Source: Curvularia clavata
Taxonomy: Eukaryota
NCBI GenBank assembly: GCA_023920165.1
Contig: CP089274.1
Coordinates: 3,844,001 to 3,908,000, forward strand
Length of the DNA: 64,000 nucleotides
Reading direction: 5' to 3'
The translations under genes and the position numbers were made by a program. Position 1 is the stretch's first letter. Every line of letters begins with the position of its first letter. Shown one piece after another: positions 14,935 through 63,550 of the stretch. The notes beneath the pieces were generated by a model. The model saw nothing but the letters and a program-made list of their open reading frames with translations, had not been told where the DNA came from and searched no databases.

Positions 14935-17900
14935 CTACTGATTCCTAAACATTCTTTTCATCCGCTGCCTGATCGTCAACTTCTGCTGGGAAGCCTCAAG
15001 GGCATGTATCCAAGAGGCAAGCTCTACGCATCTCTTATCCGAAGGGCCAAGCGTGCTTTGGAAGCCGTAGAGTGCAGTAGAGAACATGGCCTGAGCTTCC
15101 ATAGGCTTTCTTTGTCTGTGATAGAGACGACCAAGGTTGTCGAATGCGTCAAGTGCTTGCGGATACTGGAGAGCGATCTCATCACCCAGCGTCTTCTTAT
15201 AGCCTTGTATTGCCCGCTTATACATCTTTTCCGCCTCGTCTAGCTTTCCCTGATTTGTATACAGAATGGCAAGGTTATGGAATGTGCCAAGTGTTCGCGG
15301 GTGATGGAGAGCAGGATCGTTGTCTAGTACCTTCTTATAGCCTTGCAGTGCCCGCTGGTACATCTGCTCTGCCTCGCTGAATCTCCCTTGTTCCAAGTAG
15401 AGGTTGCCCAAATTGTTGACAGTGTCTAGTGTTAGCGGGTGTGTAGGCCCACGTTTATCCTCTGACCCTCGCAGCGCCCGTTCATACATCTGCTCAGCCC
15501 TAACCCACTTGCGTTGCCTGTTGTAGAGGCTGCCTAGGTTCTGGACTATGTCTAGTGTTAACAGATCACTCGCCCCGAGACCCTCTTCTCCCCTTCTCAG
15601 TGCCAGCTCATACATCCGTTCAGTCTTGCCTAGCTTGCCTTGCCTGTGATAAACGACGGCTAGCGTATTGACTGCGATTATTGTCCATCTGTAGCTAGGT
15701 CCAAGTGCCTCCTCATACCCTCGCAACGCCTGCTTACACAACCGCTCAGCCTCGCCAAGCTTGCCTTGTGCATCAAAGAGACTGCTAAGTAGAAGCGTGC
15801 CAGCGAGAACCGCTTCATATTGTTCCGCCTCCATGACATATCCTTCTACCTCATCATCGCTGCTGAGTTTTTCTCTCTGGATATTGGCCTGGAACACCCA
15901 TTGAGATGCGGCTTGGGCATGGGGAAATATTCTTAGTTGCAGGGCCGTACAGTTATGTAACGACTCGCTTGGCGCTGCAAATCCAACAGCAATCACGGCT
16001 AAACGTCCTAGCTTCGTTGCAAGCTGCGTATCCTGAGAGCAACAAGCCCACCGATGCACCACGGGGTGTGTCGTGTAGCCCGCCGACCCTTCTACTACTT
16101 CTACAAGCGAGTAGTTGCGTAGTATCAGCATTGCTCTGCTAAACGCCAGCTCGCTAGTTGCTGCATCTCCGATCCACTCTGATAGCATGCGTTGAACTAC
16201 AAGAGATCCTTCGCAAGCTGTCGCAAACAAGTCGTGCCACAGATCTTTGTTGTCCAAAAATGACCACAGTAGAAGAAGATGCGCCGCTGACTCGTATTTG
16301 GCAAGGACAGCTTGATACGAGATGATCCACGTTATCCATACGCTTCGGTCCGGGTAATCTTGAAGTGGCGCGCCTTCTTTGTCTTGGAGCGCCATCAACT
16401 CGTCCCATTGCTGCTCATAGAAGCGGAGATATTCCTCAATGTTCGTGCCACTTTCTTGTAGGTATGCGCCAGCCTGCGCGATTGCTAGCGGTAGACCATC
16501 CAGTCGCTCCAGAAGCTGTTTGCCGAGCTTTGCGTCTACAAAGCTTGTTAACGCCATACAGTACCAGAATATAACTGTAAACTCACCATACGGCTGCTTG
16601 TTCCAATTCTCGAAGATGATCTTTGCTTGCGTCTCGTCCACTTTACCTAAATGCTGTGACTCACCTAGCTGCTCCAACTTGGCCAAACGTGTGGTAATCA
16701 ACACAGAACCATGATCGGCACCCGAGAAATAGCTCCTCACGTCATATGACTCGGGATCTCCCCCTGTACTGCTGTATTCCCGGTCAACATTGTCGAAGAT
16801 AAGCAGCCATGCCGTGTTATCAGGCTGTGCAAGCCAGCCTAAGACGTCTTTCACCACAGCATCCACGTCAACACTCCTTCCTGTCGCATACGCCCTACTT
16901 GTCTCTGCAATCTGACCCTTCGGTATTCTGTTGGCACAACCAGCAATACTTTGTTGGACGCTGTCTTTGCTCCGTCCATCTAACCAAAATACTGCACTAA
17001 AGCAGTGGTGGTGTCGTCGTGCGAACTCGACTGCAAGCTGTGTTTTGCCAATGCCACCAAGCCCACGCAGGATATATCTCTTCTGTCGGCCACCCTGTCG
17101 ATGCTTGGGGAGTAGTACACGTTCCATGTCTGCCAACTCAGCTGGTCGGTCCACAAATGCCCTCACGCTTGGTACACCCTCGACACTGAAAATCGTTTGG
17201 TACACTCCAGAGTCTACAATACTTTAGCTACTTGCTAAGAATATAATTTGAAAGCCAATACTAACACTCTCGTGCAGCTATGTTGCCTGCGCACGCCTGC
17301 ATCTGCTTGTACACCTCGTGCGACGAGATGTACCTGCGCGTCGCCGCCGCCATTTCCTTTACCTTGGCCGCTTCTTCTAGCCCAATATCCTCTAGCCCTC
17401 GCACTACATTGAATCGATAGTATCGTCCTGTGCTATCGAGCTCCTGCCGATCGCGCTGGAACTGTTCAGCTGTCCGCTCTGTCTCTGTCGCAATAGCAAT
17501 AAGCGTCTTGCCGATGTGCAGCACGTCGTCTTTGAACGGCTTGAGCGACGGCACGCCTGTCCCAATCGACACCAGGCACTTCACTCGCCCTTCCAATAAC
17601 TCTGATCCCCAAACCAGGCGTGCCTGATCCCACAACTGCCGCACTGGATTGTTCGCGCCAATCGCGCCATCTACAAACTCCTCACTAAAGCGTCCGATTG
17701 TAATCGAGTCGAAGAAGGAGGTAGCTGCGGAAGTGGCTCGGCACGCCTCCCAGATGGTCACACTGCCTAACAAGTCGTTATTGCCCTGGGGCGTGCGGTA
17801 ACTGGTCAGGCACACTGTCTCGTTCGTCTCTTTGCTCGTCGCACACACGAATCTACAGCCTTTAGCAAAACGTGCTGGGTAGGCAGTGCAACATACACTT

Positions 17901-18353
17901 TGCATGGAGCATTAGGCTCGTCTCTAAGCAGCGCGTCCTCTTTCAAGCCCTGCTGCTTCACAACCTCCTTGATCGCCCGCGCCAGCTCTTCCGCGTTGAA
18001 ACGACCCTGAACCTGACCCTTGATTGTCACTCGGTGTCGTGTCTTGCGGAAGACACGTTTGGAGAGCAATACATAGGCATCGATGCAGTCACCTACGCTC
18101 ATCTTCAGTCGGCCAAGCATAACAGCGATCAGGCTGAAGTTGAGGTGTCAGCGCTCTTTGTATAGTACCGCAACCACTCAGTAATTACTGACCCACCCGT
18201 ACTCGTCCCACCGATCATATCAAAGTAATCACACGGTTTCGGTGGCGCGTCCGGGTTAACAGCCTCCATGAGCTTCTCGAGGATCATCAGGGCGGACAGG
18301 CCCCGTACGCCGCCGCCATCAAGAGCGAGCAGGCGCAGGTCGTGACCGGGCAT
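14935..18353 (-). CDS. Fungal NLR: patatin-like phospholipase + NB-ARC + TPR repeats
   Basis: Patatin DGGGVRG, GTSTGG (catalytic Ser) and DGA (catalytic Asp); P-loop GLGGIGKT, Walker B WLLIFDNVD, GLPLAI; TPR-like repeats (LGNLY...AEQMYQRAL). Introns at 18192-18134, 17896-17853, 17265-17214, probably also ~16590-16540. Confidence 0.92.
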
Positions 18354-25304: not shown

Positions 25305-27295
25305 CAGTGGGGTGACACGAAAAAAGATCACAAGGAAAAATAGCATTTTTCACTAGGCTATATCTTAGCTAATAAAATAGCTAAAAATATAAAAGCTTAA
25401 GATTTGTATAGAGAATTACCAGCTCTTCTAGTCTATAATCTAAAAAGAAGCTTAGTAAGTATATAGCTCTTAGAAAGAAATGCTGAACTAGTGAGAAAAA
25501 AAAACGTCAACTTTACACGTATTTTTCGCGCTGAGATCTTGCAATTTATATAGCTATCTATATATAGATATATACTATTAGTATATATATATAATATATA
25601 TTTTTTATAGCTATAGTTACTTATCTAAATTAGAAGATATATATATAACTTATATTTTAGTAAATATATAAGATAATAATAGTAAATTACTATCTAATAT
25701 TTTGTATACCAGCCCTTAGCTTCCACTACTCTATTATAGCGTTTGGGCATAGATAAAATACAGCTATCTATGTCTTTTTGTGGTATTTTATGCCACTCTT
25801 GGTGAATAGCTGTAATAAACGTATTTATACTAGTCTCACTAGCGCCAGTGCCAAGACTAGAGCTTGGCAGCTTAGTAAGCCGATTTTTAAGCAAGCTCCA
25901 TACGTTTTCTATTGGATTTAGATCTGGGCTATACGCTGGATGGTCGAAAAGTGTAATTTTATGGCGCTTAAACCAGTCTAAAACGTTTCTAGCTTTATGG
26001 ATTGTTGCGTTATCTTGTTGGAATTTCCAGCCTAAATAGATATAGATTAGCTAACTATAACTGTATAGTTAGACTTATATATATATATTTATATATTTAG
26101 ATATATATATATATATAAGTAAAAATATATAGCAGAACTTACCGCGTTTTATATTCGGTTTTATATATGGTATTAGACATTTTCTAATATAGTGGTGATT
26201 TCGATGTTTTACTACGCTATTTGGCGTCTTAATAACCACTAGATTGGATCTGCCACCTATCCAAATAGCTCCCCAAACTTGGATAGTTATATCATGGGCT
26301 AAAAATTGGCTTAGTCAGCTAGATATATAAGATATAATATATATATATAGTTATATATATATATAAGTATATTTTGGCTTATTAGAAATATTTTTAAACG
26401 TACTTGTATTTTTAGTAGAGTATATTTTTGGATTTTGGTGGTATTTTGGCCTATTTCGAGAAAATTCGGCTCGAGATCCATATCCACGCTGGATTCCAGA
26501 CTCGTCAGAATATACAACTTTTTTAAAGTTAATATTACTGAGCTTTTTAAGCTTATTTTTAGCGTAGAGTAGGCGTTTTTTAGCTTTTTTCTCGTTTAAA
26601 ATTGGCTTTTTTTGACTAGTTGTTATAGTCCAGCCCTCTGCTTTTAAAACTCTTTGAAGAGTTCTACTAGATATTTCTAGATTATTTTCGTTTAATAATC
26701 TATTTTTTGGTTTTTTTGGACTGCGTAGTATATCTCTATTTAGAGCTCTTATTGCTCTAGAAGTTGTCTTAGAAATTCCGCCTAAACTAGCTCTTTTTGG
26801 CTCACTAATAGCTTTATATTTTCGTTTTATTCGAGCTATAGCGTTATATATAGACCGTGGATTTTTTTGAAAGTAATTTATTATATTTTTTATAGGTGTA
26901 TTAGCGTCTAAAAACGCTTTGATTTGGCGTTCGAAATTCGACAGTTGTGGCTCCATTGTGTGGGGAATACAGTTTTAAGTTGCTAGAAATGAAAAGCTAT
27001 AGTTATATACTAGTTGATTACTAATAGCTGACTAAGCTAGTGCTTATGTAAGCTAGTGCCAAAATTTCAAATCTCATATAGCTATTTAACTAGATAGACA
27101 ACTATAGCTTAAAACTATATATATTATATATAAATACTAATAGTATATATCTATATATAGATAGCTATATAAAATAACAAATATCAGCGCCAAAAATACG
27201 TGCAAAGTTGACGTTTTTTTTTCTCTCTAGTTCAGCATTTCTTTCTAAGAGCTATATACTTACTAAGCTTCTTTTTAGATTATAGACTAGAAGAG
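25305..27295 (-). mobile_element. Tc1-like DNA transposon copy 1 (long TIRs; right TIR cut by the C2 LTR)
   Basis: TA|cagtggggtgacacg terminus; inserted at a TA in the C1 integrase; right TIR stops at 27295. Confidence 0.88.
25694..26956 (-). CDS. Tc1-family DD34E transposase, 3 exons, 348 aa, intact
   Basis: Exons 26956-26404, 26298-26143, 26031-25694 total 1047 nt. Motifs SDESG, VWGAI, FQQDNATIH, SPDLNPIENVW; 34 residues between the second D and E. Confidence 0.87.
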
Positions 27296-28458: not shown

Positions 28459-29778
28459 AGTTTGTTTTCTATTTCTATATATTCTCGCTGTTGTTATATC
28501 CTAACTATTTAACTAGGTACTTGGTTTCTTTCCTTATAGTGCGGTGTGCTAGAATTTTCTCGACTTCGAACTTATTTTCCTCTTCTAGTTCGAAATAAAA
28601 TGTTTTTTGTAATAGTGTTTTAGGGTCTGCGGGTTTTAGTAGCTTAATGTAAAATCTTAGGTATATCTTTACATCTAGTAGTAGATTAAGTATATAGATA
28701 ACTAGTCTATTCTAGACTTTAATTAAAAATAGCCTAACATAGATATTGTCTAATCTCTTGCTTAGTCGTGTCGTGCGAAGGTTCTTCATAAATAGATATA
28801 CTTTATCCCCCTTCTTTAGCTAAGATGCTATTTTTCTTTTCTAGTTAACATATAAGATGCTTTAGCGTTGAGCCTTTTCAAGTAATTCTCGTAGTTCTTT
28901 ATATATTTTCTTTATTTCTTTAGTTATAGCGATAGCTACTTCTATTTTCAAACTTGGTAACGTTTTAGTAAAGAGATTTAGATATCTTCTATAGTTTACG
29001 TAAAATAGTATTTATTTTGTTAATTCTAATAATTTATTATTATATACTAGTTGTGCCATAGGTAGCAGTTATACCTAATTATTTTATTAGTAGTTACTGT
29101 ACATCCTAAAGTATGTCTTTATCGTGCGATTTGTTCTTTCTATTTGTCCATTAGTCTCCGGGTAGTATGCTGTAGATAGCTTCTGCTTAGTGCCTATTTC
29201 TACTATAAGTGTGGTCCAGAAATTTGATATAAAAAGCTTATCTCTATTGCTAATGATTGTTTTTGGTATTCTATAGTGTCTAATAATTCTATTAAGAATA
29301 ACGTATGCTAATTGCACTGCGGTATAGTCTTTTCTAAATAGTATATATTCTATATATTTCGTAAATCTATTAATAACGACTAATATCGCGTCGTAGGTTA
29401 TTCTAGTAATAGGATCTATTAATAGTGGTAATCCTGTAACGAAGTCCATGGAGATGTCTATCCAAGGGGTGTTTGGCAGTTCTAGTGCTTGCATTTCTCC
29501 ATATAGTGCGTGTGTGCTGTACTTATTCTTCTAACAGTATTCGCATTTAGCGATAAAAACTGCGACCTTTTCCTTTATTTTGCTAAATTCGAAGTTTCTT
29601 CAAATCAGTTCTATTATTCTAGCGATCCCGGGATATCCATATACGGGGTCGTCATAATATTACTAAATAATTACTTCCTACTAGTCTTTAGATATATCAT
29701 TTCTAATTATCATAAGCAGGTTAAGCTCGTATACTAGGCTCAATATTCCGTCTTTATTTATCTATAGTATCAGTCAGT

Positions 29779-30049
29779 TGTAACGGCGCGAGCAAGACTA
29801 GTCGAATCGGTTCCGGTGGGAAGTGTCACTCAAATGCATATGGAAGTGCGTGGGACAGCAGAAACACCTTGGATTCGGTAGACACTCATAGGCCTGGTAC
29901 GAAAGGATATCAAAAATCTACCGAACATCTATGGAAGGTACCTGGTACTTATACCTGGGTGCGGGTCTTCATCGGGTCTGACCCGGCTCTCAATCGGATC
30001 TTGATAAGCTGCCCTGGCTGGGGTATGTTTTGGTCTATGCATGGTTACA
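29779..30049 (-). repeat. 3' LTR of B1
   Basis: tgtaacggcg...atggttaca; same sequence as 36704-36974. Confidence 0.93.
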
Positions 30050-30534
30050 TTACCCCCCCTCCCGGTAGACAGCTGGTCCCACAGCTGTCTGTTCCGGTTG
30101 TCATTCTTCTTCCCTGCACCATGGGGTCCCTCGTTCCTGATTTCCCCCAGATTTTCCCCACACTGCGCCACTTCGGGCAATAGGATGCTCCGGTTCCGGT
30201 GTGGCTCCCGTGGCCGTGCATGTCCTTCACTTGAGCCTCTGTGCCTGAGCCTCAGTGACCATTCCGGTACTCACGTGGCGCTGCTGCCTTGCTGCCTGGC
30301 CGCTAGGCCGTTTGCCTTCACCTGCCAGACAGGCCTGGACGCTTCGATCGGAGCTCCGAGTCGCCGGCGATTCGTTTGTAGTCAGGGTCCAACGGCTATC
30401 CAGGTCACGTGTGCCAAGACTGTTTGCTCCCCCAGTGTGTATATCAACAACAACACAGTGTCGCCGCCGAGTTTTCTCCTCCACGCTTCTCAATCAAAAC
30501 AAGTCAATTACAACTCAACGCACTCGTTTTCGCT

Positions 30535-31202
30535 ATGCCTCTTCGTTGTCCGCCCGGTGCGCTGCCGGATGCGTATCGCTTCATCTGTCTGCGAGCTGTC
30601 CGCGCCTTGGCGCGCCGTCAGTTCGACATTGCTTACGCCTACCCGTCCGATTCCTCCAAGAAGTGTCTTTATTGCACCCAGCAGAAGGAGAAGTGCGATC
30701 CTGTAAGTTTGCTTCTCTTTTCCTTCACTGTTTGCAGCTTGGCTAACCCGGATAGGTTCCCGAGTACGTCTTCGAGGAGTTTCACGATTTGATCGATGCC
30801 ATCGAGTTGTGTGCCATCGCTCGGTATGGCCCTGCAGTTGATGCCGATACGGAGGTATTGCTTGATCGAATCGCTGCCGCCGCTTTGGACATCGCCCGCA
30901 AGGTCCAAGTTGTCAGGTCCCAGGAGAAGGAGCTTTCAGTCAATCAGCTCCTCGTCGCCCAGAACCAGGTCCTGAGGGACATCCGAGACAGCATCTCGGA
31001 GTTGGTCGATACAGTCAATGGCATGGAAAGGCGCCTTTCGCGTCTTGAGGCCAGGTCGGCTCGGGGTGGCGCCCGGGTCGGCCCTCGGGTCGAGGAGTCG
31101 GAGGAATGGTCTGGTTTGTCCTCCTCCTCAGAGGAGGACAAGGGTGCGGTTGACCAGGAGATGGCCGACGCTGAGCAGGAGCGCTCTGATGTTGAACTTT
31201 GA
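30535..31202 (+). CDS. Spliced antisense accessory gene of B1 (204 aa; Cys motif, coiled coil, acidic tail)
   Basis: Exon 1 30535-30702 (MPLRCPPG...ICLRA...KKCLYCTQQKEKCDP), intron 30703-30755 (GTAAGT...GCTAAC...ATAG), exon 2 30756-31202 in frame with the 137-aa ORF. Confidence 0.75.
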
Positions 31203-31300
31203 GTGAGGTGACATTTTGGGGGTTTGTTGGTGGTTGTGGGGTTCGGGTCCGAGTTTCCTTTGTTACTGATACCCAATGAAGTTTCTGTTTTTCCTTTTCT

Positions 31301-34300
31301 TTAAATTTTGTCATCCTGCAGTGAAGTCATATCCTCTGTGCCTTGTTCCCATGCCGTGATCCACTTGCCAAGGGAACGTGGGGGTCCCGGTTTGGTGGGA
31401 TGTTGTTCATGGAAGAGTTTGAGCTTGTGTGGGGCTCCCATGAAGTTTGAGGCTGGGTACCAGGTAGGATCCGGGTCATGTCCGACCCACCGTACTTGGT
31501 ATTTTAGGTTTGAGCGGTACAACTTGCTTGCTAGGATTTCTTCTACCTCCCATTCTTCCACGCCTTGGATGGGAGTTGCTGGGGGCTTTGGAGGTTCTTG
31601 TCCTGGGAGGGGGTCTTGAGGATCTTTGCATAATAGATCCGGGGCGAAGACATCATGGATCCGGGACCTTTTCGGAAGGTCCAAGCGGTATGAATGTCCT
31701 ACCTTCTCAAGTACCCTGAAGGGTCCCTCCCATTTGGAGGATAGCTTCCTACTCGGACGGTCTGACGCGAGGTTCCGGGTACTTAGGAAGACCATGTCTC
31801 CCACATCCCAGTCAACAGAACGACGATGGCGGTTGACTGTGGTTCGCATCCTGTCCTGGGCTTTCTCCATTTGTTCCTTAGCTACCTTCCATGCGTCGTG
31901 CATGCGGGTAGCCATTTCCAATGCATCCTTATGGTTGAGTTTGTCAGTGGGGGTGAGAAGGCTGGTGGAATGTTTCCAGTCCCAACTCTGCCGGGGTTCG
32001 GAACCATATAGGATGTGGTACGGGGACATGCCAATGGAAGAATGTGGTAGGGAAATTTGAGCACGATCGATCAAAGGTAGAAGTCCACTCCAGTTGTCTT
32101 GGTAGTAGGATACGAATGGGCGCAACCTCTGATCGATGTACTTATTCATAATCTCTGTCTGACCATCCGTTTCTTTGTGGTAGGCGGTTGACAGCTTGAC
32201 CTTAACGCCTAGGATTCGGCAGAATTCCGACCAGAAGCTTGAAATGAACTGTGGTCCTCGGTCAGAGACTATGGTTTCAGGTGTGTGGCCAAATCGGTAC
32301 ACCCATTGAACGAATAGGTCGGCCATTCCCCTTGCATCAATAGTCTTGTGGCAGGGGATGGAGATGGCCTGCTTAGATAACCGGTCGATCACGACCATGA
32401 TCATGTCGTAACCGGATCGGTCTCGGGGAAATTCCTTAAAGTCGATGCACAGGTGCTGCATCGGCCGGTCAGGAATTGGCAAAGGATGAATCATCCCTGG
32501 AATTCGGGTCTGTCTAGGATGGGCCTTCCTACAGGCTATGCAATTCCGCACATACCTTTTACAGGTGGATTCCATACCCTTCCAGTGGTACTTCTGGGAC
32601 AGTAGTTGGTAGGTCTTCTTTGCACTGGGGTGCGCTGAGGATACCTGGTCGTGTACTTCCCGAATGAGGCGAGTCACAAGGGTAGAGGTGGAAGGAATGC
32701 ATAGGCGGTTGGAATAGAGCAGGAGTCCGTTTTCGATCCGGTATCTGTCCGGAAGGGACCTTCGCTCTGCCCCAAACGAGGCTCGGTTCTCTTGTAGGAT
32801 AGACTCGATCAGCTCCAGCGAATCGAGGGACATCGGCTCCGATATGGGCTCAACTACAAGTAAGGAGAAAGATTCCGCTTGGAGTTGGGCTACATAGGTC
32901 TTAGCAAGTTCGGAGTTGATTCGGTTGTCAAGTCGGTGCGGTCCCAGGAGGACCCGCGAACGGTTGTCAATTTGGGCTGTCTTCAGATTCCCCACATCTT
33001 GCTCCCGTCGGGAGAGGATGTCAGCACGAGCATTATCCTTTCCGGGGGTGTATCGGATGTGGAAATTGAAGGATGCCAACTCTTCCGCCCATCGCACCTG
33101 GCGGGCATTCAGAACTTTGGTAGTCATGAAGTATTCAAGGGAACGGTGGTCTGAGTACACGTCGACACGAGAGCGTACCGACAGCAGTTCAGGTCGCCAC
33201 TTGCTAAACGCCGTTACGATGGCGAATAGTTCTTTGTCGTGTATTTCCCAGTTCAGCTCAGACCCGGATAGGACCTTGCTGAAGAATGCTACAGGACACC
33301 AATTTCCATTTGGCTGCTTTTGGGAAAGAACGCCTGCCACAACGCCATCGGACGCGTCGGTCTCCACCTTGGTATCATACTCTGGATGGTAGTGGTACAA
33401 GGTGGGAATTGCCAGCAGTGCAGATTTTAACCTTTCAAAGGCTTGGTCGCACTCCGAATCCCATACGAATGGTCTTGAGGGGCTCTGGAGGGCGAGGAGA
33501 GGTTTCGCAATTCGCGAGTATTCAGGAACGAACTGCCTGTAGAACCCAGTGAACCCTAGGAACGACTTCACACCAGTAACGGTGGTAGGTCGGACCCAAT
33601 CTTGAAGGGCTTCCACCTTGTCAGGGTCCACCTCTAGACCTTGGTTGGTCAAAATGTACCCTAGGTATTTGGTCCGAGTGACATGGAATTCGCTTTTCTT
33701 GATGTCAACTTGGAGACCGGCTTGCCTAAGCCTTTCCAAGACCTGTTGTACGTGGCGGGGGTGGTCCGGTTCCGATTCGGAGTAGATCAAAATGTCGTCT
33801 AGGTAGACTATGCAGAAGCTGTCTAGATAATCAATCAACACATCATTCATGTAGCGTTGATATGTTGCAGGGCCGTTGCATAATCCAAAAGGCAACACTT
33901 TGGACTTGTAGGTTCCGTATCTAGTGCGGAACGTGGTGTACTCCTCCGAGTCGGGGTGCATTCGGATCTTGTTGAATGCCGCACGTATGTCGAGCTTGGT
34001 GAAGATTTTCGCCTTGTGGGTGCGGGCTAGAAGCTCGTCAATGCGTGGTATCGGATACGCATCCTTTCTGGTGATTGCGTTGAGTCGGCGGTAATCTACA
34101 CAGATGCGAATGTCTCCGTTTGGCTTCCGAACACAAAGGACTGGGGAGGCGAAGGGGCAGTGGCTTGGGTCAATGTGTCCTTTCCTAAGGTTTTCCATTA
34201 CGAACGTCTTGGTGGCTTCGAGTTCTTCAGTGCTCTGCTTGTACAGAGGACTGAATTGATTCGGAAGAGGTTCGGTCAGCACAATCTTATGATCGTATGG

Positions 34301-35236
34301 GCGATGTTCGGGCAGTAGCTCTGCCGCTGTCTTGCTGAAGACATCGCGGTACGAATGGTAAGCGGATGGAAGTCGGTCCCGAACAAGTTTGGCGTTTTCG
34401 GGATCGTCTGGCTTCATGCGCTCTTCTAAGATGCGATCGATCTCATAGATACTTGTCGTGAAGAACTCGTTTTCCTTACGCTTCATAGAATAATGGAAAG
34501 CATTTGCCGAAATGATGGCGATACGGGGTGAAGATGTTGGTCGGATAGGGTCCGGAGTAGGGTCGGGAACAGGTAGTGGTAGACGAACCTTGGGAAGTTT
34601 GAGGCATCCTCTAATTCTTCGCATGAGAGCTTTGCGAGGACTGTTTTGCCTACGGTAGTTGTCCTTTTCCCATAGTGCGTCTCGCCTCTGTATGTCCCGT
34701 TCCACATCAGCATCGATGGAAGGTTGTTTCAACTGTACAAGGATAGGTGGCGCGGGATCATATGTTGGAGGGTACTTGGCCGGCCATACGATCCGGTTCC
34801 GGCTCGTATCAAGCCTAAGCTGGAAACGTCTTAACCACTTGATTCCAATTATGCAGTCCTGTGTCCCTAGATCCATGATCACGAAGGGACAGTTGTAAAT
34901 CTTTCTTCCATCGATTCGGATATGTAACCGAATATATTTGTCTACCCTAGTTTGGACTTGGTCCTGAAATCCTTTGACTGTGATCTTGAAGGGAAGTCTT
35001 CGGATGGGGACCTGAAGGGAGCCGGAGAGGGTACGAGCAATAGCAGAATTTAAGAATAAAAAGCCTTGGGCTCCAGTGTCAACTAAGGAGTGCAAGCTGA
35101 CACCAAACCCTTTCGAACAAAGAACGGTGGGTACTAGGAAGTGTTTTCCTCCGAACAAGTGGGATAAATCAATTTTAGCTAGATCGTACTTGTTCATGCC
35201 TAGGGCGGAGAGTTTTCCTAGGCCTGGTGGTTTCCC
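31301..35236 (-). CDS. B1 pol (protease, RT, RNase H, integrase, chromodomain), made by -1 frameshift
   Basis: LVDTGA; YLDDILIYS; ETDASD; HDQVSSAH..CIAC; IVSDRGPQF, TDGQTE; WEVEEIL..YQVRWVG; slippery G GGA AAC at 35236-35230. Confidence 0.93.
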   Translation of the reverse strand, partial: GKPPGLGKLSALGMNKYDLAKIDLSHLFGGKHFLVPTVLCSKGFGVSLHSLVDTGAQGFLFLNSAIARTLSGSLQVPIRRLPFKITVKGFQDQVQTRVDKYIRLHIRIDGRKIYNCPFVIMDLGTQDCIIGIKWLRRFQLRLDTSRNRIVWPAKYPPTYDPAPPILVQLKQPSIDADVERDIQRRDALWEKDNYRRQNSPRKALMRRIRGCLKLPKVRLPLPVPDPTPDPIRPTSSPRIAIISANAFHYSMKRKENEFFTTSIYEIDRILEERMKPDDPENAKLVRDRLPSAYHSYRDVFSKTAAELLPEHRPYDHKIVLTEPLPNQFSPLYKQSTEELEATKTFVMENLRKGHIDPSHCPFASPVLCVRKPNGDIRICVDYRRLNAITRKDAYPIPRIDELLARTHKAKIFTKLDIRAAFNKIRMHPDSEEYTTFRTRYGTYKSKVLPFGLCNGPATYQRYMNDVLIDYLDSFCIVYLDDILIYSESEPDHPRHVQQVLERLRQAGLQVDIKKSEFHVTRTKYLGYILTNQGLEVDPDKVEALQDWVRPTTVTGVKSFLGFTGFYRQFVPEYSRIAKPLLALQSPSRPFVWDSECDQAFERLKSALLAIPTLYHYHPEYDTKVETDASDGVVAGVLSQKQPNGNWCPVAFFSKVLSGSELNWEIHDKELFAIVTAFSKWRPELLSVRSRVDVYSDHRSLEYFMTTKVLNARQVRWAEELASFNFHIRYTPGKDNARADILSRREQDVGNLKTAQIDNRSRVLLGPHRLDNRINSELAKTYVAQLQAESFSLLVVEPISEPMSLDSLELIESILQENRASFGAERRSLPDRYRIENGLLLYSNRLCIPSTSTLVTRLIREVHDQVSSAHPSAKKTYQLLSQKYHWKGMESTCKRYVRNCIACRKAHPRQTRIPGMIHPLPIPDRPMQHLCIDFKEFPRDRSGYDMIMVVIDRLSKQAISIPCHKTIDARGMADLFVQWVYRFGHTPETIVSDRGPQFISSFWSEFCRILGVKVKLSTAYHKETDGQTEIMNKYIDQRLRPFVSYYQDNWSGLLPLIDRAQISLPHSSIGMSPYHILYGSEPRQSWDWKHSTSLLTPTDKLNHKDALEMATRMHDAWKVAKEQMEKAQDRMRTTVNRHRRSVDWDVGDMVFLSTRNLASDRPSRKLSSKWEGPFRVLEKVGHSYRLDLPKRSRIHDVFAPDLLCKDPQDPLPGQEPPKPPATPIQGVEEWEVEEILASKLYRSNLKYQVRWVGHDPDPTWYPASNFMGAPHKLKLFHEQHPTKPGPPRSLGKWITAWEQGTEDMTSLQDDKI

Positions 35237-36408
35237 GCCCGGTCCTCCTCCGATAAGTATTCGTGTGCTTCTTCGAATTCTTCCTTCTCTGCTTCGATTT
35301 CTCGAACCCGAGGAATGGGGCACTCATTCGCATAATGTCCAGGTTTTCCGCAGTTATAGCAATTGCTAGTAGTCGGTTTGCTATCCAGTGCGGGGGTCTT
35401 TGAAGGGAACCTGGGGGTATTAGAATGAGCGCGAGATTGGGTCGGAGCTGGTTCGGATCGGACTCCATAAGTGTTTGGGCGGTAGTCCCGGTATTGACTG
35501 ACGCGGGGCTTCGTTGGTGGAGTACGAGAATTATTGGAAGTGGGTTCCGAACCGTGTCCGAAAGGAGTGTTCCTTCTTTCGGTATCGAAGGCAGTAAGGT
35601 GTTGTATCATCTTGTCAAAGGAGTTGTTCCACTGGTGTTTAAATCCCAAGTTTGGAACACGCAAGGCGGGGGTAATTTTTTCCCATAAGTAGAAAAACCA
35701 CTCCGACTTCGATACGGATCCTTTGACGGCAGCACTTATAAATTTTGCCTTAAATTCAGCGAAGGTTTCCTTTTTGTCCATGAGCAAGCGGTGGAAAGCA
35801 GCGCGGCTTTCCGCTTGCTCGTTGCCGGATACGAAGTATGATTTTAGAGTAGCTATCATATCTTCGGCGTTTTGGAACCGGTCCTCCACCGAATCGGCTA
35901 GGTACTGTGGTTCCAGGTATCCCTTGGCGATACCTGTAGTATGTCCCCAGACTAGAGCCATGCGTGCGCGTTCACTCCGATAATGGTCCGCATTGATTGT
36001 TAAGCGGTCCTCTATTGACGCTTGCCATTGGCGGAACGTAGGTTCTGTTCCATCACTAAGGTTATCAATGGAAGGGGTACGTTCTGTGAGTTTGACACGT
36101 AGCAGGTCCGGGGTTGCTGACTGGTACCTTCCGAATTGAGTTTCGGTTGGTTCAGCGATAGTCGGTGGTGATTCGGTGGAGGGGAGAGGTTGATCTGGGG
36201 CTGCGGTGTTTTGGCGGGACAGCCGTGCGATTTGTTCGTTTAGCCTGTCGATCTCTGCCCGAAGGAGGCTAGTCTCATCCTCTTCCGAATCCTCTTCCTC
36301 TTCGACGGCTGGCGGTTTGCCAGGCGTCTTCTCTCTTGACTTCGAATCTTGGAAGCGCGGCGACTTCCTGGAAAGCTCTCCTGAGCCGGATGGGGTTCGG
36401 TCAGCCAT
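35218..36408 (-). CDS. B1 gag with CCHC zinc knuckle
   Basis: 396-aa ORF with CYNCGKPGHYANEC. Confidence 0.92.
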   Translation of the reverse strand: MADRTPSGSGELSRKSPRFQDSKSREKTPGKPPAVEEEEDSEEDETSLLRAEIDRLNEQIARLSRQNTAAPDQPLPSTESPPTIAEPTETQFGRYQSATPDLLRVKLTERTPSIDNLSDGTEPTFRQWQASIEDRLTINADHYRSERARMALVWGHTTGIAKGYLEPQYLADSVEDRFQNAEDMIATLKSYFVSGNEQAESRAAFHRLLMDKKETFAEFKAKFISAAVKGSVSKSEWFFYLWEKITPALRVPNLGFKHQWNNSFDKMIQHLTAFDTERRNTPFGHGSEPTSNNSRTPPTKPRVSQYRDYRPNTYGVRSEPAPTQSRAHSNTPRFPSKTPALDSKPTTSNCYNCGKPGHYANECPIPRVREIEAEKEEFEEAHEYLSEEDRAGNHQA

Positions 36409-36703
36409 CGACGGTTGTCTTCGTGGCTGATGGGTTTTTGGTAGTCTCCGAGTCTCTACCTTGGCGCAATCTACGCGACTTCTCCGAAGTTAACCTGACT
36501 GCAATCAGTACAGGAGGTCCAAACCCAAAGGCTTCGGTCGGCGGGAGATCGAAGGGATCCCGCCTGTGTGTGAATGTGGGACGTAACGGTGTGAAGTATC
36601 CGGAGCGGTTCCGGAGGGACTTGGGCTTGGGCGCGGTCTCAACAAACAAGCTGCGATATTGTTTTGAAGGCCGTCACCGGCTGGGACGAGATTTTTGATA
36701 TAA

Positions 36704-36974
36704 TGTAACGGCGCGAGCAAGACTAGTCGAATCGGTTCCGGTGGGAAGTGTCACTCAAATGCATATGGAAGTGCGTGGGACAGCAGAAACACCTTGGATT
36801 CGGTAGACACTCATAGGCCTGGTACGAAAGGATATCAAAAATCTACCGAACATCTATGGAAGGTACCTGGTACTTATACCTGGGTGCGGGTCTTCATCGG
36901 GTCTGACCCGGCTCTCAATCGGATCTTGATAAGCTGCCCTGGCTGGGGTATGTTTTGGTCTATGCATGGTTACA
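36704..36974 (-). repeat. 5' LTR of B1
   Basis: Same sequence as 29779-30049; followed by TSD TCAGT. Confidence 0.93.
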
Positions 36975-39900
36975 TCAGTCTATAATAATTTTTATCCCTA
37001 TAATATCTAGCCTTCTACTAAGAGCGTCTACTCTACTATTATCTTTTCCTAGTATGTATACGATCTTAAATTTATATTGCCCAAGCAGCTCAGCCCATCA
37101 GATTTATTAGCGGTTAAGGACTTTAGTAGTAGTAAAATAGGTCAAGTTCTTATAATCCGTGTATATAGTAAGTTCTAAGCAGCTATATACGTAGACTCTC
37201 CAGTATTATATACAGGCTACTATAGCTAGTAGTTCTTTGTCATATACGTCGTATCGTTCTTCTAGTCCTAAGAGCTTCCTTGAGTAGTATACTATTAGAT
37301 GCCATTTACTATCAATATAGATACTAGCGCATCCTTCTAGAACTAGATCCAATACGTTAGTTTTAAATTTCAGTAGTACTCCTAGAATAAATATCCTGAA
37401 GTATAGTAATATAGTACATACTTTCTTAATTATTTTAAAGGCGTTATCTACCTTTTCATCCCAATTCTATAGGGTATCTTTTCTCGTAAACTATATCATT
37501 GGTATTACAATTTTCAAGTAATCTTTAATAAATTCTCAGTTAAAGTTCGCAAATTCTAAGAATAACTAAATATCCATAACTAACTTTAGTATCAGCCAAT
37601 TCTTAATAATTTTAATTTTTTCTTCACTTATTTATACTCCATTAGTCCCTACTATATAGCCTAAGAAGTTGACCTTAGTCTTATAAAATTCACACTTCTT
37701 TAGCTTAAGTCGAAGACTGTACTTATCTAGAGCTTTAAGCACCTTTCTAACGTACTTAGTATATTATTCTTCATCCTTAGAGTAGATTAGGATATCATCT
37801 AGATAGACGATAACGAATATATTTAGATAGAGTCTAAGTACATTATTAATAAGTTCTTAAAATATAGCTAGGGCGTTCATTAGCCCAAACAGCATAACTG
37901 TGTATTCGTAGTGTCCATATCGTATTTAGAAAGCCATTTTCTATTCTTCACCTTTCTTAATTCTAATAAGATAGTATCTATCTTATAGATCTAATACTAT
38001 AAAGATCTCTACTTAAGATAGTCAATCCCTAAGTTCTCTAATGTTTAGTAGTAGATATCAATTCTTAACTATAATATTATTAAGTTGTCTATAGTCAACG
38101 TATAGTTAATCTATTCCGTCCTTCTTTAGTACGAATATAATAGAGTATCCCACTAGAAATTTCGACAGTCATATATAGCCTTTCACTAGTAACTTATCTA
38201 TATACTCTCATAGTACTATAAGTTCTCATTCCAATAGTTAATAAATTAGGCCAAAAGTCGGTTACTTTCCTTCCTATAGGACTATTTTATAGTCCTAGAG
38301 TTAGTGCTTTAGTAACGCTTATTCATCTACCACTTCCTAAAATAGATACTCAAATTCTCTATATTATTTAGAGATTTCCGGAGTTGCGTCCTTCTCCTTT
38401 CCTCTAGCTTTATAGTCCGCTAGCCTAGTTTTAGTATCTACTAAGTTTAGCTTCCTACTCTAGGAACTACCTTTCGAGTACGCTCGTTTCTCTACGTTAT
38501 TACACTATTTAGCAATATTACTCTTATCTACCATTAAACTCTACTAATACGTAGGCTGGCTTGCGGTTACGCTTAGTCCGCAGCACTCAAATTTAAACAC
38601 TTTCAACTTCCAGTCAATCCGCGGGTTATATTCTCGTAGCTATAGAAGTCCTAAAATAATATCGTAGATAGCTAGTCTAAGGATTAGGCATTAGTTCGCC
38701 GCTAGCGACATATAGTAGGTATAGCTCTTATTTCCACTATACTTTAAGTCCGGCTTATTATACTGCGTGCGCTGAAACGTAGTTTACCTAGAATTCTAAG
38801 TCTACTAATGCCTATATCTATATTCTATTAAGCTTTACTATAAGCTTAATCAATCCTAGAGAGTTTACTAAGTTAATTTCTCTAAAAAGGCCCTGCCTTC
38901 ATAGCGTCGGCCTAAAAAAGGTTATTCTTTTATAAATCTGTTGTAGATCTTTTCTATTTTATACTTTTAGCATTCTCCTATAAGATAGGTGTGCTATAAA
39001 GGCTAGTTGCATGCTTGCTATTCACTATACTTAGTTTGTATAGTGCGGGTTAACTGCATATCTACTACTTCCTTTAGACTACTTCTCTCTAGAAAGTATA
39101 TCGCTGTGCGTTTATCCTATAGATGTCTTACGCATTCTACATTAGTATATTCTAACCATATCTAGTTACATTTAGAGTATCTAGGAATATTAGTTAGATT
39201 CCAGTCAGATCCTTGTTTAGCTTGCCAATATATTAGGTAGAAGTTATAGACGCAACCTGTCCAGTAGATCCACACATACTTGTAGTTATTTGCGTAGTAC
39301 TAATAGAGACTAAGTTAGTACTAATTATTACGTATCCAGTCTGCTTATGCCTTCTTAGCCTATTAAGGTGTCGTTATAGAGTTCTCTTTCTAGAATATCT
39401 TCTTATCTTCGGGGAACTCCGTGTTTTCTTATAGTCGTTGGATATTAGCCGTAATATACGTGTAGTCTGGTAGTTTCTAATTAGTTATAATAGAAAAAAA
39501 GTTAATATCTAATCTAAAATTCTATATATCTTTATATATATAAAGAAATATATTAGGCTTATTATAATTATATCTGTGAAGGGGTTAATTCAAGAGTTAT
39601 TATAGTACGTTGGTCTGTAGTTCTATATATTTTGGGTCATCCCTTACGTGTGGAATTTCTAGTGAGGCGCTGTTATGGCGTAGAGTAGCTAGTTGGTGTT
39701 TCTTCTTAAACTTAGCCATCTTCTTATATTTAGTCTTGTGCGTAGGAGTTTCTTCTTTTTCGCTAGATATTTTATACTTTTTATCGCTACTTAGTTTAGT
39801 TTTAGTAGTGTTCTTAGATGTGGTAAACGTGACATTCTCTAGTCTACTAATAAGTTCCTCGTCGTCTAGGTAATATTAGATCTTAGCTAGGGTGATAATA

Positions 39901-49186: not shown

Positions 49187-50313
49187 TGTAACGGCGCGAG
49201 CAAGACTAGTCGAATCGGTTCCGGTGGGAAGTGTCACTCAAATGCATATAGAAGTGCGTGGGACAATAGAAATATCTTGGATTTGGTAGACACTTATAGG
49301 CCTGGTACGAAAGGATATTAAAAATCTACTGAACATCTATAGAAGGTAGCTAGTACTTATATCTAGAGGTAGGTCTTTATTAGATCTAATCTAGCCTTTA
49401 ATTAGATCTTAGTTAGCTATTCTGGCTAGAGTATATTTTAGTCTATACATAGTTACATTACCCCCCCTTCTAGTAGACAGCTAGTCCCACAGCTATTAGT
49501 TCTGGTAGTTATTCTTCTTCCCTACACTATTAGGTCCCTCGTTCCTAATTTCCCTAGATTTTCCCTATACTACACTACTCTAGCTAATAGGATACTCTAG
49601 TTCTAGTGTGGCTCCCGTAGCCGTGCATGTCCTTCACTTAAGCCTCTATGCCTGAGCCTTAGTAGCCACTCCGGTACTCACGTGGCGCTGCTGCCTTGCT
49701 GCCTGGCCGCTTGCCTTCACCTGCCAGACAGGCCTGGACGCTTCGATTAGAGCTCTGAGTCGCCGGCGATTCGTTTATAGTTAGGGTCTAACAGCTATCT
49801 AGATTACGTGTGCTAAGACTATTTACTCTCCTAGTAGGTATATTAATAATAATATAGTATCGCCGCCGAGTTTTCTCCTCTACGCTTTTTAATTAAAATA
49901 AGTTAGTTATAACTTAATACACTCGTCTTCGCTATATCTCTTTGTTATCCACTTAGTACGCTACTAGATGCGTATCGCTTTATCTATCTGCGAGCTATCT
50001 ACGTCTTAGCACGCCGTTAGTTTAACATTGCTTACACTTATCTGCCTAATTCCTCTAAGAAGTATCTTTATTATACTCAGCAGAAGGAGAAATACAATCC
50101 TATAAGTTTACTTCTCTTTTCCTTTACTATTTATAGCTTAGCTAATCTAGATAGATTCCTAAGTATATTTTTAAAGAGTTTTACAATTTAGTTAATACTA
50201 TTAAGCTATATACTATCGCTTGGTATAGCCCTAAAGCTAATGCCAATATAGAGATATTACTCAATCGAATCGCTACCACCGCTTTAGACATTGCCTGTAA
50301 GATCTAAGTTATT
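49187..50313 (-). mobile_element. Family B copy B2: 3' LTR (49187-49457) and part of the antisense gene; heavily RIP-mutated and truncated
   Basis: Collinear with B1 29779-30913, with many C>T/G>A changes. Confidence 0.88.
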
Positions 50314-50314
50314 G

Positions 50315-52441
50315 CAGTGGGGTGACAAAAAGAAAGAGTACAAGAAAAAATAGCTAATTTCAAATAGCTATATCTCAGCTTATATAATGACTGATAATAA
50401 GAAAATTTAATCTTTATATAGAGATTTACTAGATCTTAAAAGCTAGTATTTGAAATACTACTTACTAAGCATACAGAGTATACTAAAGAATACTAAAGTA
50501 GAGAGAAAAAGAAACGCCAACTTTAAGCTATTTTTTCGCGCTTGTTTTTTGGATTTTATATATATATCTATATATAGATAGACACTACTAGTCTATATAT
50601 ATAACATATATAGTCTTAAGCTATAGTTGTCTATCTAAGTTAGTAGATATATATATAAGTTATATTTTAGTATTTAAATTAGATAATAATTGTAAATTAC
50701 TATCTAATACTTAGTATACCAGCCCCTAGCTTCTACTACTCTATTATAGCGTTTTGGCATAGATAAAATACAGGTATCTATGTCTTTTTGTGGTATTTTA
50801 TGCCACTCTTGGTGAATAGCTGTAATAAACGTATTCATACTAGTCTCACTAGCGCCAGTGCCAAGACTAGAGCTTGGCAGCTTAGTAAGCCGATTTTTAA
50901 GCAAGCTCTATACGTTTTCTATTGGATTTAGATCTGGGCTATACGCTGGATGGTCGAAAAGTGTAATTTTATGGCGCTTAAACCAGTCTAAAACGTTTCT
51001 AGCCTTGTGGATCGTTGCGTTATCCTGTTGGAATTTCCAGCCTAGATAGCTATATATTAGTAAAGTATTTTATACTAGTTAGATATATATATATATAAGT
51101 ATATATATATATATAAGTATATATATATATATATAACTATATATAAGTAAAAATATAAAGTAAAACTTACCGCGTTTTATATTCGGTTTTACATACGGGA
51201 TTAGACATTTTCTAATATAGTGGTGATTTCGATGTTTAACTACGCTATTTGGCGTCTTAATAACCACTAGATTGGATCTGCCACCTATCCAAATAGCTCC
51301 CCAAACTTGGATAGTTATATCGTGAGCTAAAATTAGGCTTAGTCAGCTAGATATATAAGATATAAAATATATATATAGTTATATATATATATAACTATAT
51401 TTTGGCTTCTTAGATATATTTTCAAACGTACTTGTATTCTTTGTAGAGTATATTTTTTGATTTTGGTGATACTTTGGCCTATTTCGAGAAAATTCGGCTC
51501 GAGATCCATATCCACGCTGGATTCCAGACTCGTCAGAAAATATAATCTTTTTAAAGTTAATATTACTAAGCTTTTTAAGCGTAGTTTTAGCGTATAATAG
51601 TCGTTTTTTAGCTTTTTTCTCGTTTAAAATTGGCTTTTTTTGACTAGTTGTTATAGTCCAGCCCTCTGCTTTTAAAACTCTTTGAAGAGTTCTACTAGAT
51701 ATTTCTAGATTATTTTCGTTTAATAATCTATTTTTTGGTTTTTTTGGACTGCGTAGTATATCTCTATTTAGAGCTCTTATTGCTCTAGAAGTTGTCTTAG
51801 AAATTCCGCCTAAACTAGCTCTTTTTGGCTCACTAATAGCTTTATATTTTCGTTTTATTCGAGCTATAGCGTTATATATAGACCGTGGATTTTTTTGAAA
51901 GTAATTTATTATATTTTTTATAGGTGTATTAGCGTCTAAAAACGCTTTGATTTGGCGTTCGAAATTCGACAGTTGTGGCTCCATTGTGTGGGGAATACAG
52001 TTTTAAGTTGCTAGAAATGAAAAGCTATAGTTATATACTAGTTGATTACTAATAGCTGACTAAGCTAGTGCTTATGTAAGCTAGTGCCAAAATTTCAAAT
52101 CTCATATAGCTATTTAACTAGATAGACAACTATAGCTTAAAACTATATATATTATATATAAATACTAATAGTATATATCTATATATAGATAGCTATATAA
52201 AATAACAAATATCAGCGCCAAAAATACGTGCAAAGTTGACGTTTTTTTTTCTCTCTAGTTCAGCATTTCTTTCTAAGAGCTATATACTTACTAAGCTTCT
52301 TTTTAGATTATAGACTAGAAGAGCTGGTAATTCTCTATACAAATCTTAAGCTTTTATATTTTTAGCTATTTTATTAGCTAAGATATAGCCTAGTGAAAAA
52401 TGCTATTTTTCCTTGTGATCTTTTTTCGTGTCACCCCACTG
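50315..52441 (-). mobile_element. Tc1-like DNA transposon copy 2 (both termini present, TIRs unequal)
   Basis: cagtggggtgaca...tgtcaccccactg|TA; long imperfect TIRs. Confidence 0.9.
50704..51984 (-). CDS. Tc1-family DD34E transposase, 3 exons, 348 aa, intact
   Basis: Exons 51984-51432, 51326-51171, 51041-50704; same motifs as copy 1. Confidence 0.87.
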
Positions 52442-56132: not shown

Positions 56133-56639
56133 TGTTACAAGTAACAAAGAAGGATCTCTCCTTGACGATGGCCGCAGGTAGGAGACCATTGGGCGACACG
56201 TCAGAAGGTAATGATCCCCGCGGAAGGGCGATCACATGACTGGCCTCAGGCCAAGACCGGGAAACCACGCTAGTATGTGAGGACACGCTCACACGTGACC
56301 AAAGTGACTTCAGGGACTTCAGAGAACACAGGGGTTATTCCGTGAGGACAGTGAGGACAGGACCGGAAGCAATGGGTATAAGAATGTGTTGGATTTCATT
56401 ATTACACTCGTTGTGGTCAACTCAGCAAAGTATCTTTCATAGTTACCTTTCATACTCAGATTGATACTAGTTATTCTATCTTCCAATAGGATTGGTTTTG
56501 TCTATCTTCCGTTAATCCCTACCACCGAATCGCCAGACAACTACCTCACGGTATACTTCATAGAAACTGGCCTCGCCCTAACCCGGAATCTAGGCTAGGT
56601 AAGTATATTCCCAACTAACCAGTAGGACCCCGTGTAACA
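56133..56639 (+). repeat. 5' LTR of D
   Basis: tgttacaag...gtgtaaca; TATA-like tataag at ~56377. Confidence 0.94.
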
Positions 56640-56700
56640 CTTTGACCACCCACGGATTCGGTAAGCGGTTTAACACCAAGCGTCCGATTGAGATATCACC

Positions 56701-63092: not shown

Positions 63093-63550
63093 GAGACCAT
63101 TGGGCGACACGTCAGAAGGTAATGATCCCCGCGGAAGGGCGATCACATGACTGGCCTCAGGCCAAGACCGGGAAACCACGCTAGTATGTGAGGACACGCT
63201 CACACGTGACCAAAGTGACTTCAGGGACTTCAGAGAACACAGGGGTTATTCCGTGAGGACAGTGAGGACAGGACCGGAAGCAATGGGTATAAGAATGTGT
63301 TGGATTTCATTATTACACTCGTTGTGGTCAACTCAGCAAAGTATCTTTCATAGTTACCTTTCATACTCAGATTGATACTAGTTATTCTATCTTCCAATAG
63401 GATTGGTTTTGTCTATCTTCCGTTAATCCCTACCACCGAATCGCCAGACAACTACCTCACGGTATACTTCATAGAAACTGGCCTCGCCCTAACCCGGAAT
63501 CTAGGCTAGGTAAGTATATTCCCAACTAACCAGTAGGACCCCGTGTAACA
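63044..63550 (+). repeat. 3' LTR of D
   Basis: Same sequence as 56133-56639; followed by TSD CATTC. Confidence 0.94.

Follow-up and report, generated by a model that had tools for sequence, protein, structure and literature searches.

An intron-bearing antisense gene next to the 3' long terminal repeat of a Curvularia clavata chromovirus, and the family of fungal proteins to which it belongs

Can the short region between the 3' long terminal repeat (LTR) and the end of pol in a Ty3/gypsy retrotransposon hold a gene of its own, read against gag and pol and interrupted by an intron? The question is raised by B1, a chromovirus in a 64,000-nt stretch of Curvularia clavata DNA (contig CP089274.1 of assembly GCA_023920165.1, positions 3,844,001 to 3,908,000; this whole stretch is referred to here as the window, and all coordinates are given within it). 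The original prediction, made from the letters of the window, had placed a plus-strand gene between the 3' LTR and the pol stop of B1, and the gene is found there, at 30535-31202. The analysis described here leads to a probability of about 0.72 that it is a genuine protein-coding accessory gene of this Ty3/gypsy chromovirus, situated between the polypurine tract and 3' LTR on one side and the pol stop on the other.

The polypurine tract of B1 and its pol stop (31301) are separated by 1250 bp, and the antisense gene lies within this interval, in the orientation opposite to gag-pol. Exon 1 (30535-30702, plus strand), defined by its open reading frame (ORF) and by homologues, begins with the ATG at 30535 and consists of 56 codons that encode a conserved N-terminal cysteine domain (C18, C44, C47 and C54); its C-terminal residues are ...KKCLYCTQQKEKCDP. 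It is joined in frame to exon 2 across a 53-nt spliceosomal intron in phase 0 (30703-30755, plus strand), and the GTAAGT, GCTAAC and TAG signals that had been proposed for this intron can be read directly in the sequence. Exon 2 (30756-31202, plus strand; ORF and structural model) comprises 148 codons and a stop codon (31200-31202) and would form a helical hairpin, a long helix and an acidic, serine-rich tail. The spliced product is 204 amino acids long. The earliest in-frame ATG of exon 2 is its codon 90, so that this exon can be translated only after splicing to exon 1. The GC content at the first, second and third codon positions of the antisense coding sequence (GC1, GC2 and GC3: 0.66, 0.43 and 0.68) is coding-like. 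The predicted spliced product matches in every residue a protein (P0059) that NCBI lists under four accessions for C. clavata strain yc1106, and differs by one amino acid from a further C. clavata protein, P0003.

The position of the intron is conserved well beyond B1. A metagenome scan with an alignment of five closer sequences gave six loci, L001 to L006, of which L001-L004 are 99.8-99.9% identical and constitute one locus in one organism. In the four loci available at the DNA level (B1, L001-L004, L005 and L006), the intron occurs at the same position, in phase 0 after a conserved proline. It measures 53 nt in B1, 51 nt in L001-L004, 47 nt in L005 and 48 nt in L006 (the overall range is given as 46-53 nt), and the signals outside B1 are GTCAGT, CTGAC and TAG in L001-L004, GTAAGT, CTTAC and CAG in L005, and GTAAGT, CTGAT and CAG in L006. 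All four introns have GT and AG ends and a CTRAY-like branch site 8-12 nt upstream of the 3' end, while their interiors are unrelated. A frame shift in two of them, and in-frame stops in the introns of 51 and 48 nt, make splicing necessary at all four loci. Exon 2 of L005 contains no methionine at all. A lack of conserved splice sites or frame in related elements, together with an absence of spliced reads, had been named beforehand as what would refute the prediction; the splice sites and the frame are both kept in L005, in L006 and in the stand-alone L001-L004 copy.

Protein homologues can be read across the same junction. Beyond the C-x2-C-x6-C-x-P motif, 57 of them are readable, and 28 continue in the spliced form, with [VILM]-P. 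In 27 of the other 29, the next codon is one for valine (GTN), 21 times as valine-serine, which is the expected result of reading an unspliced GTNAGT; of the remaining sequences, P0004 is a deletion variant and P0052 is degraded.

Comparison of the coding sequences points in the same direction. When the B1 spacer region was compared with the three other loci by tblastx, the frames of the gene were the best in all three cases, with the mirror frames second. The four spliced coding sequences (B1, the L001-L004 locus, L005 and L006) were also compared by the Nei-Gojobori method. The proportion of nonsynonymous differences (pN, 0.25-0.51) is lower than that of synonymous differences (pS, 0.60-0.77) in all six pairs, and the ratio of the two corrected rates (omega) is 0.26, 0.40 and 0.26 in three pairs, synonymous divergence (dS) being saturated in the other three. 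These values indicate that the antisense protein of B1 is under purifying selection. With the intron position and both exon frames conserved and the protein constrained, the proposal that the gene is real is supported.

The same region had also been noted in two further family members of the window, B2 and B3, which have been mutated by repeat-induced point mutation (RIP), and it is present in both. The B3 copy (54339-55003, plus strand) is dead: its start codon is lost, it has 11 internal stops, and the GT of its 5' splice site has become AT. The B2 copy (49949-50349, plus strand) is likewise dead, truncated and RIP-mutated. C>T or G>A changes account for 99 of the 101 differences between B3 and B1 and for 97 of the 112 between B2 and B1. 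Both copies have been killed by RIP and are uninformative on selection.

In the related elements the gene occupies the same slot. In L005 the antisense gene encodes 189 amino acids; a gap of 93 nt separates its end from the stop of a convergent pol with 78% identity to that of B1, and LTR-like sequence lies upstream of the gene. In L006 the gene has the same arrangement beside a convergent pol, here 59% identical to that of B1. Sequence comparison indicates that the gene is present in this slot in related element families, with conservation at the level of the protein. The contigs of both loci show a circular permutation, with gag first, followed by the LTR, the antisense gene and pol, and the ends of the L006 contig are identical over 123 bp; this permutation is probably an assembly collapse of multi-copy elements and not a sign of real circles.

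The L001-L004 copy (L002:10001-10531) has a different setting. It is intact, bears the intron, and encodes 159 amino acids without the acidic tail, and its neighbours are host genes encoding Xrn1, an amidase and a DUF2293 protein. No similarity to pol, gag or an LTR was found within 10 kb on either side, and its nucleotide similarity to L005 is restricted to the antisense gene itself. It is either a domesticated copy or a donor gene. With L005 and L006 in elements and L001-L004 among host genes, the family has both element-borne and stand-alone members.

An exhaustive HMMER search with P0003 as the query returned 55 cluster representatives at E<=1e-3, 16 of them at E<=1e-10. P0036, a coiled-coil repeat protein among the 55, was excluded as spurious. 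Many of the alignments span the exon junction, covering for example query residues 1-194 or 1-150. Annotation and taxonomy were looked up for 30 of the 55 clusters, and all named members among these are 'hypothetical' proteins. They come from Pleosporales (Bipolaris victoriae, Clathrospora elynae, Polyplosphaeria fusca, Plenodomus lindquistii and Didymella keratinophila) and from Leotiomycetes (Stipitochalara longipes, Cadophora sp., Diplocarpon rosae, D. coronariae and Pseudogymnoascus destructans). A Bipolaris maydis protein was added by a word-indexed profile search, and a word-indexed search with exon 2 matched two C. clavata proteins only. Near-identical multiple copies occur in C. clavata, Plenodomus lindquistii, Diplocarpon rosae and P. 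destructans, a multi-copy state that is expected for an element-borne gene. A search of the ESM Atlas with the B1 protein returned unnamed Ascomycota clusters only. Open-access literature searches found no description of the family, nor of a conserved antisense intron in any fungal LTR element, and the family thus appears to be undescribed.

What kind of protein does the gene encode? In the 64 homologues that have the N-terminal domain, C18 is kept in 60, C44 in 62, C47 in 61 and C54 in 59. B1 belongs to a four-cysteine subfamily of 29 sequences, mostly from Pleosporales. A six-cysteine subfamily of 19 sequences, from Leotiomycetes where named, combines CxRC, HxC and CxxCx6C, that is, six cysteines and a histidine, with the spacing C-x2-C-x(12-13)-C-x8-C-x2-C-x6-C. 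The P. destructans group has the same cysteine pattern offset by one column, and three P. destructans members carry the UniRef label 'Zn(2)-C6 fungal-type domain-containing'. Since the place of the B1 CLRA is taken by CxxC and HxC in distant homologues, the N-terminal domain is likely to be zinc-binding, and in B1 it probably holds one zinc site. The B1 domain looks like a reduced form of the six-cysteine and histidine domain kept in the Leotiomycete relatives, and since C21, the histidine and C33 are missing together, one of two metal sites seems to have been lost.

The relation of this domain to the fungal zinc clusters is less direct. The Zn(2)-Cys(6) pattern is C-x2-C-x6-C-x(5-12)-C-x2-C-x(6-8)-C, and the B1 protein, with its four conserved cysteines (18, 44, 47 and 54), does not fit it. 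Gal4-type Zn(2)-Cys(6) factors (PF00172) resemble the B1 product in being fungal and in having an N-terminal C-x2-C-x6-C followed by helices and an acidic tail. They differ from it in that B1 has four of the six cysteines, and from its six-cysteine relatives in that the first loop of the latter (12-13 residues) is about twice the canonical length. Pfam Zn_clus matched none of 12 family members at E<=0.1, none of nine at E<=10 and none of six at E<=10, and since it matches no scanned member the family is not filed under Zn2Cys6. The suggestion that the domain might be a degenerate or variant zinc cluster therefore holds in part: the anticipated CxxC in place of the CLRA of B1 does occur, as CxRC in 27 of the 64 homologues, and six cysteines are present in 19, but membership of the Pfam family was not recovered among the members scanned.

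An AlphaFold2 model of the 204-residue product, built from a 24-sequence alignment, has a mean predicted local distance difference test score (pLDDT) of 82, with residues 1-80 at 87-98; a single-sequence model reached a pLDDT of 65. In the model with the alignment, a small N-terminal domain is followed by a helical hairpin at residues 59-113 and a long helix at 118-159, and the acidic, serine-rich tail is disordered. In many relatives a KKRR-type basic patch precedes the acidic tail and would suit nuclear import. Prediction of a homodimer with zinc scored 0.03.

It is most likely, from this architecture and from analogy, that the product would be a nuclear regulatory factor serving the element, for example by controlling its transcription or by countering host silencing. 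The antisense gene would have its own promoter, provided either by the 470-nt spacer upstream of the ATG or by antisense activity of the 3' LTR, and its pre-mRNA would lose the 53-nt spliceosomal intron. Its transcription would be convergent with that of pol, and the 3' end of the mRNA would probably overlap the end of pol. An intron that lies antisense goes unrecognised in the genomic RNA, and each round of retrotransposition therefore copies it faithfully; the intron of the B1 gene would survive retrotransposition because the genomic RNA holds only its reverse complement, which would never be spliced there. The nuclear, zinc-binding product would then regulate B1 or the silencing of B1.

Several observations weigh against this account. 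The C. clavata annotation of the gene may derive from ab initio prediction alone. No joint between 30702 and 30756 was found in the assembled contigs of runs X1, X2, X3 and X12 covering 29779-36703, which show no strand and drop minor forms. X2 is the one library recorded as RNA, and its 269-nt contig across the site (30522-30790), strandless like the others, retains the intron. The stand-alone L001-L004 copy lies outside any element, so that the protein is not strictly dependent on one. As to function, no Pfam family was found for the B1 protein or for the homologues scanned, only sub-threshold matches of coiled-coil type; a PDB profile search gave a best E of 0.6; and Foldseek with the AlphaFold2 model gave a best E of 0.37 in pdb and of 0.035 in viral models. 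A wide VIA-align search returned helical-hairpin rows only, at Z<=7.8, the noise level for helical models. The tail of B1 itself has no clear KKRR patch, its basic patch being weak.

These points have to be set against what the alternatives would require. That the gene is a chance open frame turned into a protein by a gene predictor is scarcely credible. Length on its own carries no significance: when 2000 sequences of 1250 nt were simulated with the same first-order composition, 55% contained an open frame of at least 148 codons in one of the six frames. A longer ORF of 221 amino acids (30041-30706) also overlaps exon 1 in another frame. That competing ORF was rejected as non-coding, as it has no Pfam match, its GC2 exceeds its GC1, and its phase is incompatible with exon 2. 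The full-consensus intron pattern is rare, with two occurrences on the two strands of the 64-kb window (0.67 expected). More decisively, the 55 homologue clusters, the conserved intron position and the purifying selection on the protein all stand against chance, which is refuted as far as comparative data allow. It is also very unlikely that the intron is simply not removed, leaving an 85-residue read-through peptide from exon 1 (30535-30792) or nothing at all. The sole RNA-labelled contig to cross the site does retain the intron, and some homologues (P0029, P0009/P0061) have stop-free in-frame introns of 45 or 48 nt. The X2 contig, however, may be genomic-sense RNA or DNA; B1 genomic RNA would give just such an unspliced contig because it cannot splice an antisense intron, and contigs show no strand and lose minor forms. 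An X1 contig also crosses the intron unspliced; coverage by X1 is even along the entire element, and this run, whose kind is a guess, may be DNA. An unspliced gene would moreover leave it unexplained that exon 2 is conserved as protein (a VQVTRSQEK motif, omega below 1) yet has no usable start codon, and that splice signals are conserved where intron interiors are not.

Two further alternatives accept the gene and dispute its role. It may be that the gene is a passenger, a host gene transduced into the ancestor of these elements that does not serve them, with the signature of selection derived from host-side relatives. The stand-alone relative among Xrn1, amidase and DUF2293 genes, with no pol or LTR similarity within 10 kb and with nucleotide similarity to the element-borne L005 confined to the gene, is what such a history would leave. 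The gene nevertheless stays intact and keeps its slot although the pol proteins of the elements are only 59-78% identical, which implies long retention through many rounds of retrotransposition; pN is lower than pS between element-borne copies as well (B1-L005, B1-L006 and L005-L006); and transduced passengers usually occur in one or few copies, according to the accessible part of a review (PMC7264820). A passenger is unlikely. It is likewise unlikely that antisense RNA, and not protein, is what matters, the ORF being secondary to double-stranded RNA or transcriptional interference arising from convergent transcription. The gene is indeed convergent with pol and ends 98 nt from its stop, so that overlap of the 3' ends is likely, and the same idea is raised for plant antisense ORFs in the portion of PMC7264820 available. 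With synonymous sites saturated, the cysteines and motifs are nevertheless conserved across two fungal classes, all six pairs show pN below pS, and the start codon, frames and splice signals are kept. A protein role and an RNA role are in any case compatible with each other, and a protein-coding accessory gene remains the preferred reading.

Are there precedents for such a gene? Among fungi, Zhao et al. (2011, Virology 417:248) reportedly described brtn, an antisense gene of Boty-like Ty3/gypsy retrotransposons in Botrytis cinerea and Sclerotinia. Like the B1 gene, brtn is an extra antisense gene of a fungal Ty3/gypsy chromovirus, a likeness of position and strand taken from partial descriptions of it; none of the 30 clusters looked up, of the 55, comes from Botrytis or Sclerotinia. 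In retroviruses, the antisense gene HBZ of human T-cell leukaemia virus type 1 (HTLV-1) is spliced and starts in the 3' LTR. It shares with the B1 gene an antisense position at the 3' end of a retroelement and splicing, which in B1 is predicted; both products are small and have a helical or coiled-coil region, and HBZ has a regulatory role of the kind that would be expected of the B1 product. HBZ is a basic leucine zipper protein, whereas the B1 product has a cysteine-rich N-terminal domain instead, and no relation of sequence or fold between the two was found, the best Foldseek match among viral models having an E of 0.035. HBZ is named among the antisense retroviral genes in the accessible text of PMC11963269. 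The brtn gene of Boty is mentioned in the available parts of PMC8365987, PMC7264820, PMC4227169 and PMC5987419, and a figure legend of the review PMC7264820 draws it between pol and the 3' LTR, antisense to gag-pol.

The closest parallel in arrangement is provided by plants, in which antisense ORFs between pol and the 3' LTR (aORF-3R) are described for the Ty3/gypsy elements Grande (gene23), RIRE2, Retand (TRP28) and PvRetro13, as given in excerpts of PMC7264820 and PMC11963269. The B1 gene agrees with the definition of an aORF-3R, being enclosed in a complete LTR element, in the interval from pol stop to 3' LTR, and read against gag-pol. According to the same excerpts, the plant ORFs also resemble it in occupying the same slot in the same orientation in most copies of a family and in having no clear function, with a nuclear or DNA-binding regulatory role suspected. 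There are differences as well. The plant elements belong to non-chromovirus lineages, the region between pol and the 3' LTR is 2.9-6.6 kb in Retand as against 1.25 kb in B1, and the plant proteins (TRP28/PF04195, Smc-like) are distinct from that of B1. The word 'intron' does not occur in the accessible text of either paper. The kind of gene is thus already known, from Boty brtn, plant antisense ORFs and retroviral antisense genes, while the B1 protein family itself appears to be new.

The element that carries the gene is B1 (29779-36975, minus strand), a Ty3/gypsy chromovirus recognised by its LTRs, target site duplication, polypurine tract, gag and pol. Its 3' LTR (29779-30050, minus strand; 271-272 bp, with the ends TGTAAC...GTTACA) lies upstream of the antisense gene on the plus strand and is 100% identical over 272 bp to the 5' LTR (36704-36975, minus strand), which was located by LTR comparison. 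The 5-bp target site duplication, TCAGT, can be read at 29774-29778 on the left and 36975-36979 on the right. A purine run on the minus strand that abuts the 3' LTR (30050-30065) is the putative polypurine tract, assigned by position. It is followed by the spacer before the antisense ATG (30066-30534, plus strand), the presumed promoter and 5' untranslated region, in which a TATA-like GTATATC occurs near 30439. Pol (31301-35197, minus strand; 1298 amino acids, intact) converges on the antisense gene across a 98-nt gap and has the order protease, reverse transcriptase, RNase H, integrase, SH3-like domain and C-terminal chromodomain. Gag (35218-36408, minus strand; 396 amino acids) has a CCHC zinc knuckle identified by Pfam. 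Pfam matches in the element are RVT_1 (2.4e-39), RT_RNaseH (4.7e-30), rve (1.7e-15) and zf-CCHC (1.1e-07); the Chromo match (3.4e-05) reaches 24.1 bits, slightly below the cut-off of 25.1. B1 forms an AT-poor island at 29.8-37.0 kb in surrounding DNA that is RIP-degraded. With identical LTRs, a target site duplication, a polypurine tract and intact gag and pol, it is a very young and apparently autonomous chromovirus.

The window contains a second intact chromovirus (56133-63554, plus strand), inserted into B3, with 511-bp LTRs that are 99.8% identical. It too has an antisense ORF (62236-62904, minus strand; 222 amino acids), which starts 140 nt from the 3' LTR. The 'pol' frame of this element, at 1503 amino acids, stays open for about 250 codons beyond the chromodomain and into the 3' LTR, opposite the antisense ORF. 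In the 222-residue product, a C-x2-C-x6-C-x8-C-x2-C-x6-C motif precedes a coiled coil, and its Pfam Zn_clus match reaches only an E of 0.12. Pleosporales hold at least 160 homologues, several of which UniRef labels Zn(2)-C6; these homologues are multi-copy in Bipolaris maydis. Homology between the two antisense families of the window was considered, but hhalign of the Zn2Cys6-patterned P0066 against the B1 family gave a probability of 7.5%, which is not evidence of homology, and the two proteins are not detectably related. The antisense slot is used by two different genes in two element families of the window, and the idea that it is a general feature of these elements holds here, the second chromovirus being unrelated, as well as in Boty and plant elements.

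Some other features of the region were also recorded. The heptamer GTTCCGG occurs 14 times in the window (3.9 expected), seven of them in B1 (29810, 30091, 30193, 31772, 34796, 36608 and 36735), all on the plus strand and five in non-coding parts. It was dropped as a candidate conserved regulatory site because it is absent from the related element L005. Two ORFs of 201 amino acids (26351-26956 and 51379-51984, both minus strand), located in RIP-degraded, AT-rich repeats, encode a Tc3-type transposase helix-turn-helix domain and are remains of a Tc1/mariner-like family of DNA transposons. The transposon-rich region is bordered by host genes for a protein with a HET domain and ankyrin repeats (5238-7895, plus strand) and for one with a patatin-like domain and TPR repeats (14935-17905, minus strand), both typical of fungal non-self recognition.

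The antisense accessory genes of LTR retrotransposons are poorly understood, and among fungi open-access searches gave only Boty brtn. The B1 family represents a second, widespread fungal antisense family that occurs in two classes and in multiple copies in the genomes of several plant pathogens; genome annotations now scatter its members as 'hypothetical proteins'. Its conserved antisense intron is a clean natural example of why such introns outlast retrotransposition, and the splice junction offers a simple handle in RNA sequencing for separating expression of the antisense gene from genomic RNA. With two intact, very young chromoviruses, each carrying a different cysteine-rich antisense gene, the window is a good system for studying function at the level of the element, and the stand-alone relative among host genes raises the question of capture versus domestication.

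A broader model can be put forward tentatively, as a possibility that at present seems doubtful. Fungal chromoviruses may routinely encode DNA-binding regulators derived from zinc clusters in the antisense slot by the 3' LTR, with the B1 family a reduced, one-zinc descendant of a six-cysteine, Gal4-like domain. Such regulators would bind the LTR or host promoters, timing transposition or escaping silencing, and they might be exchanged with the host, giving stand-alone genes such as that of L001-L004. If this were true, fungal transcription factors would both originate in retrotransposons and be carried by them.

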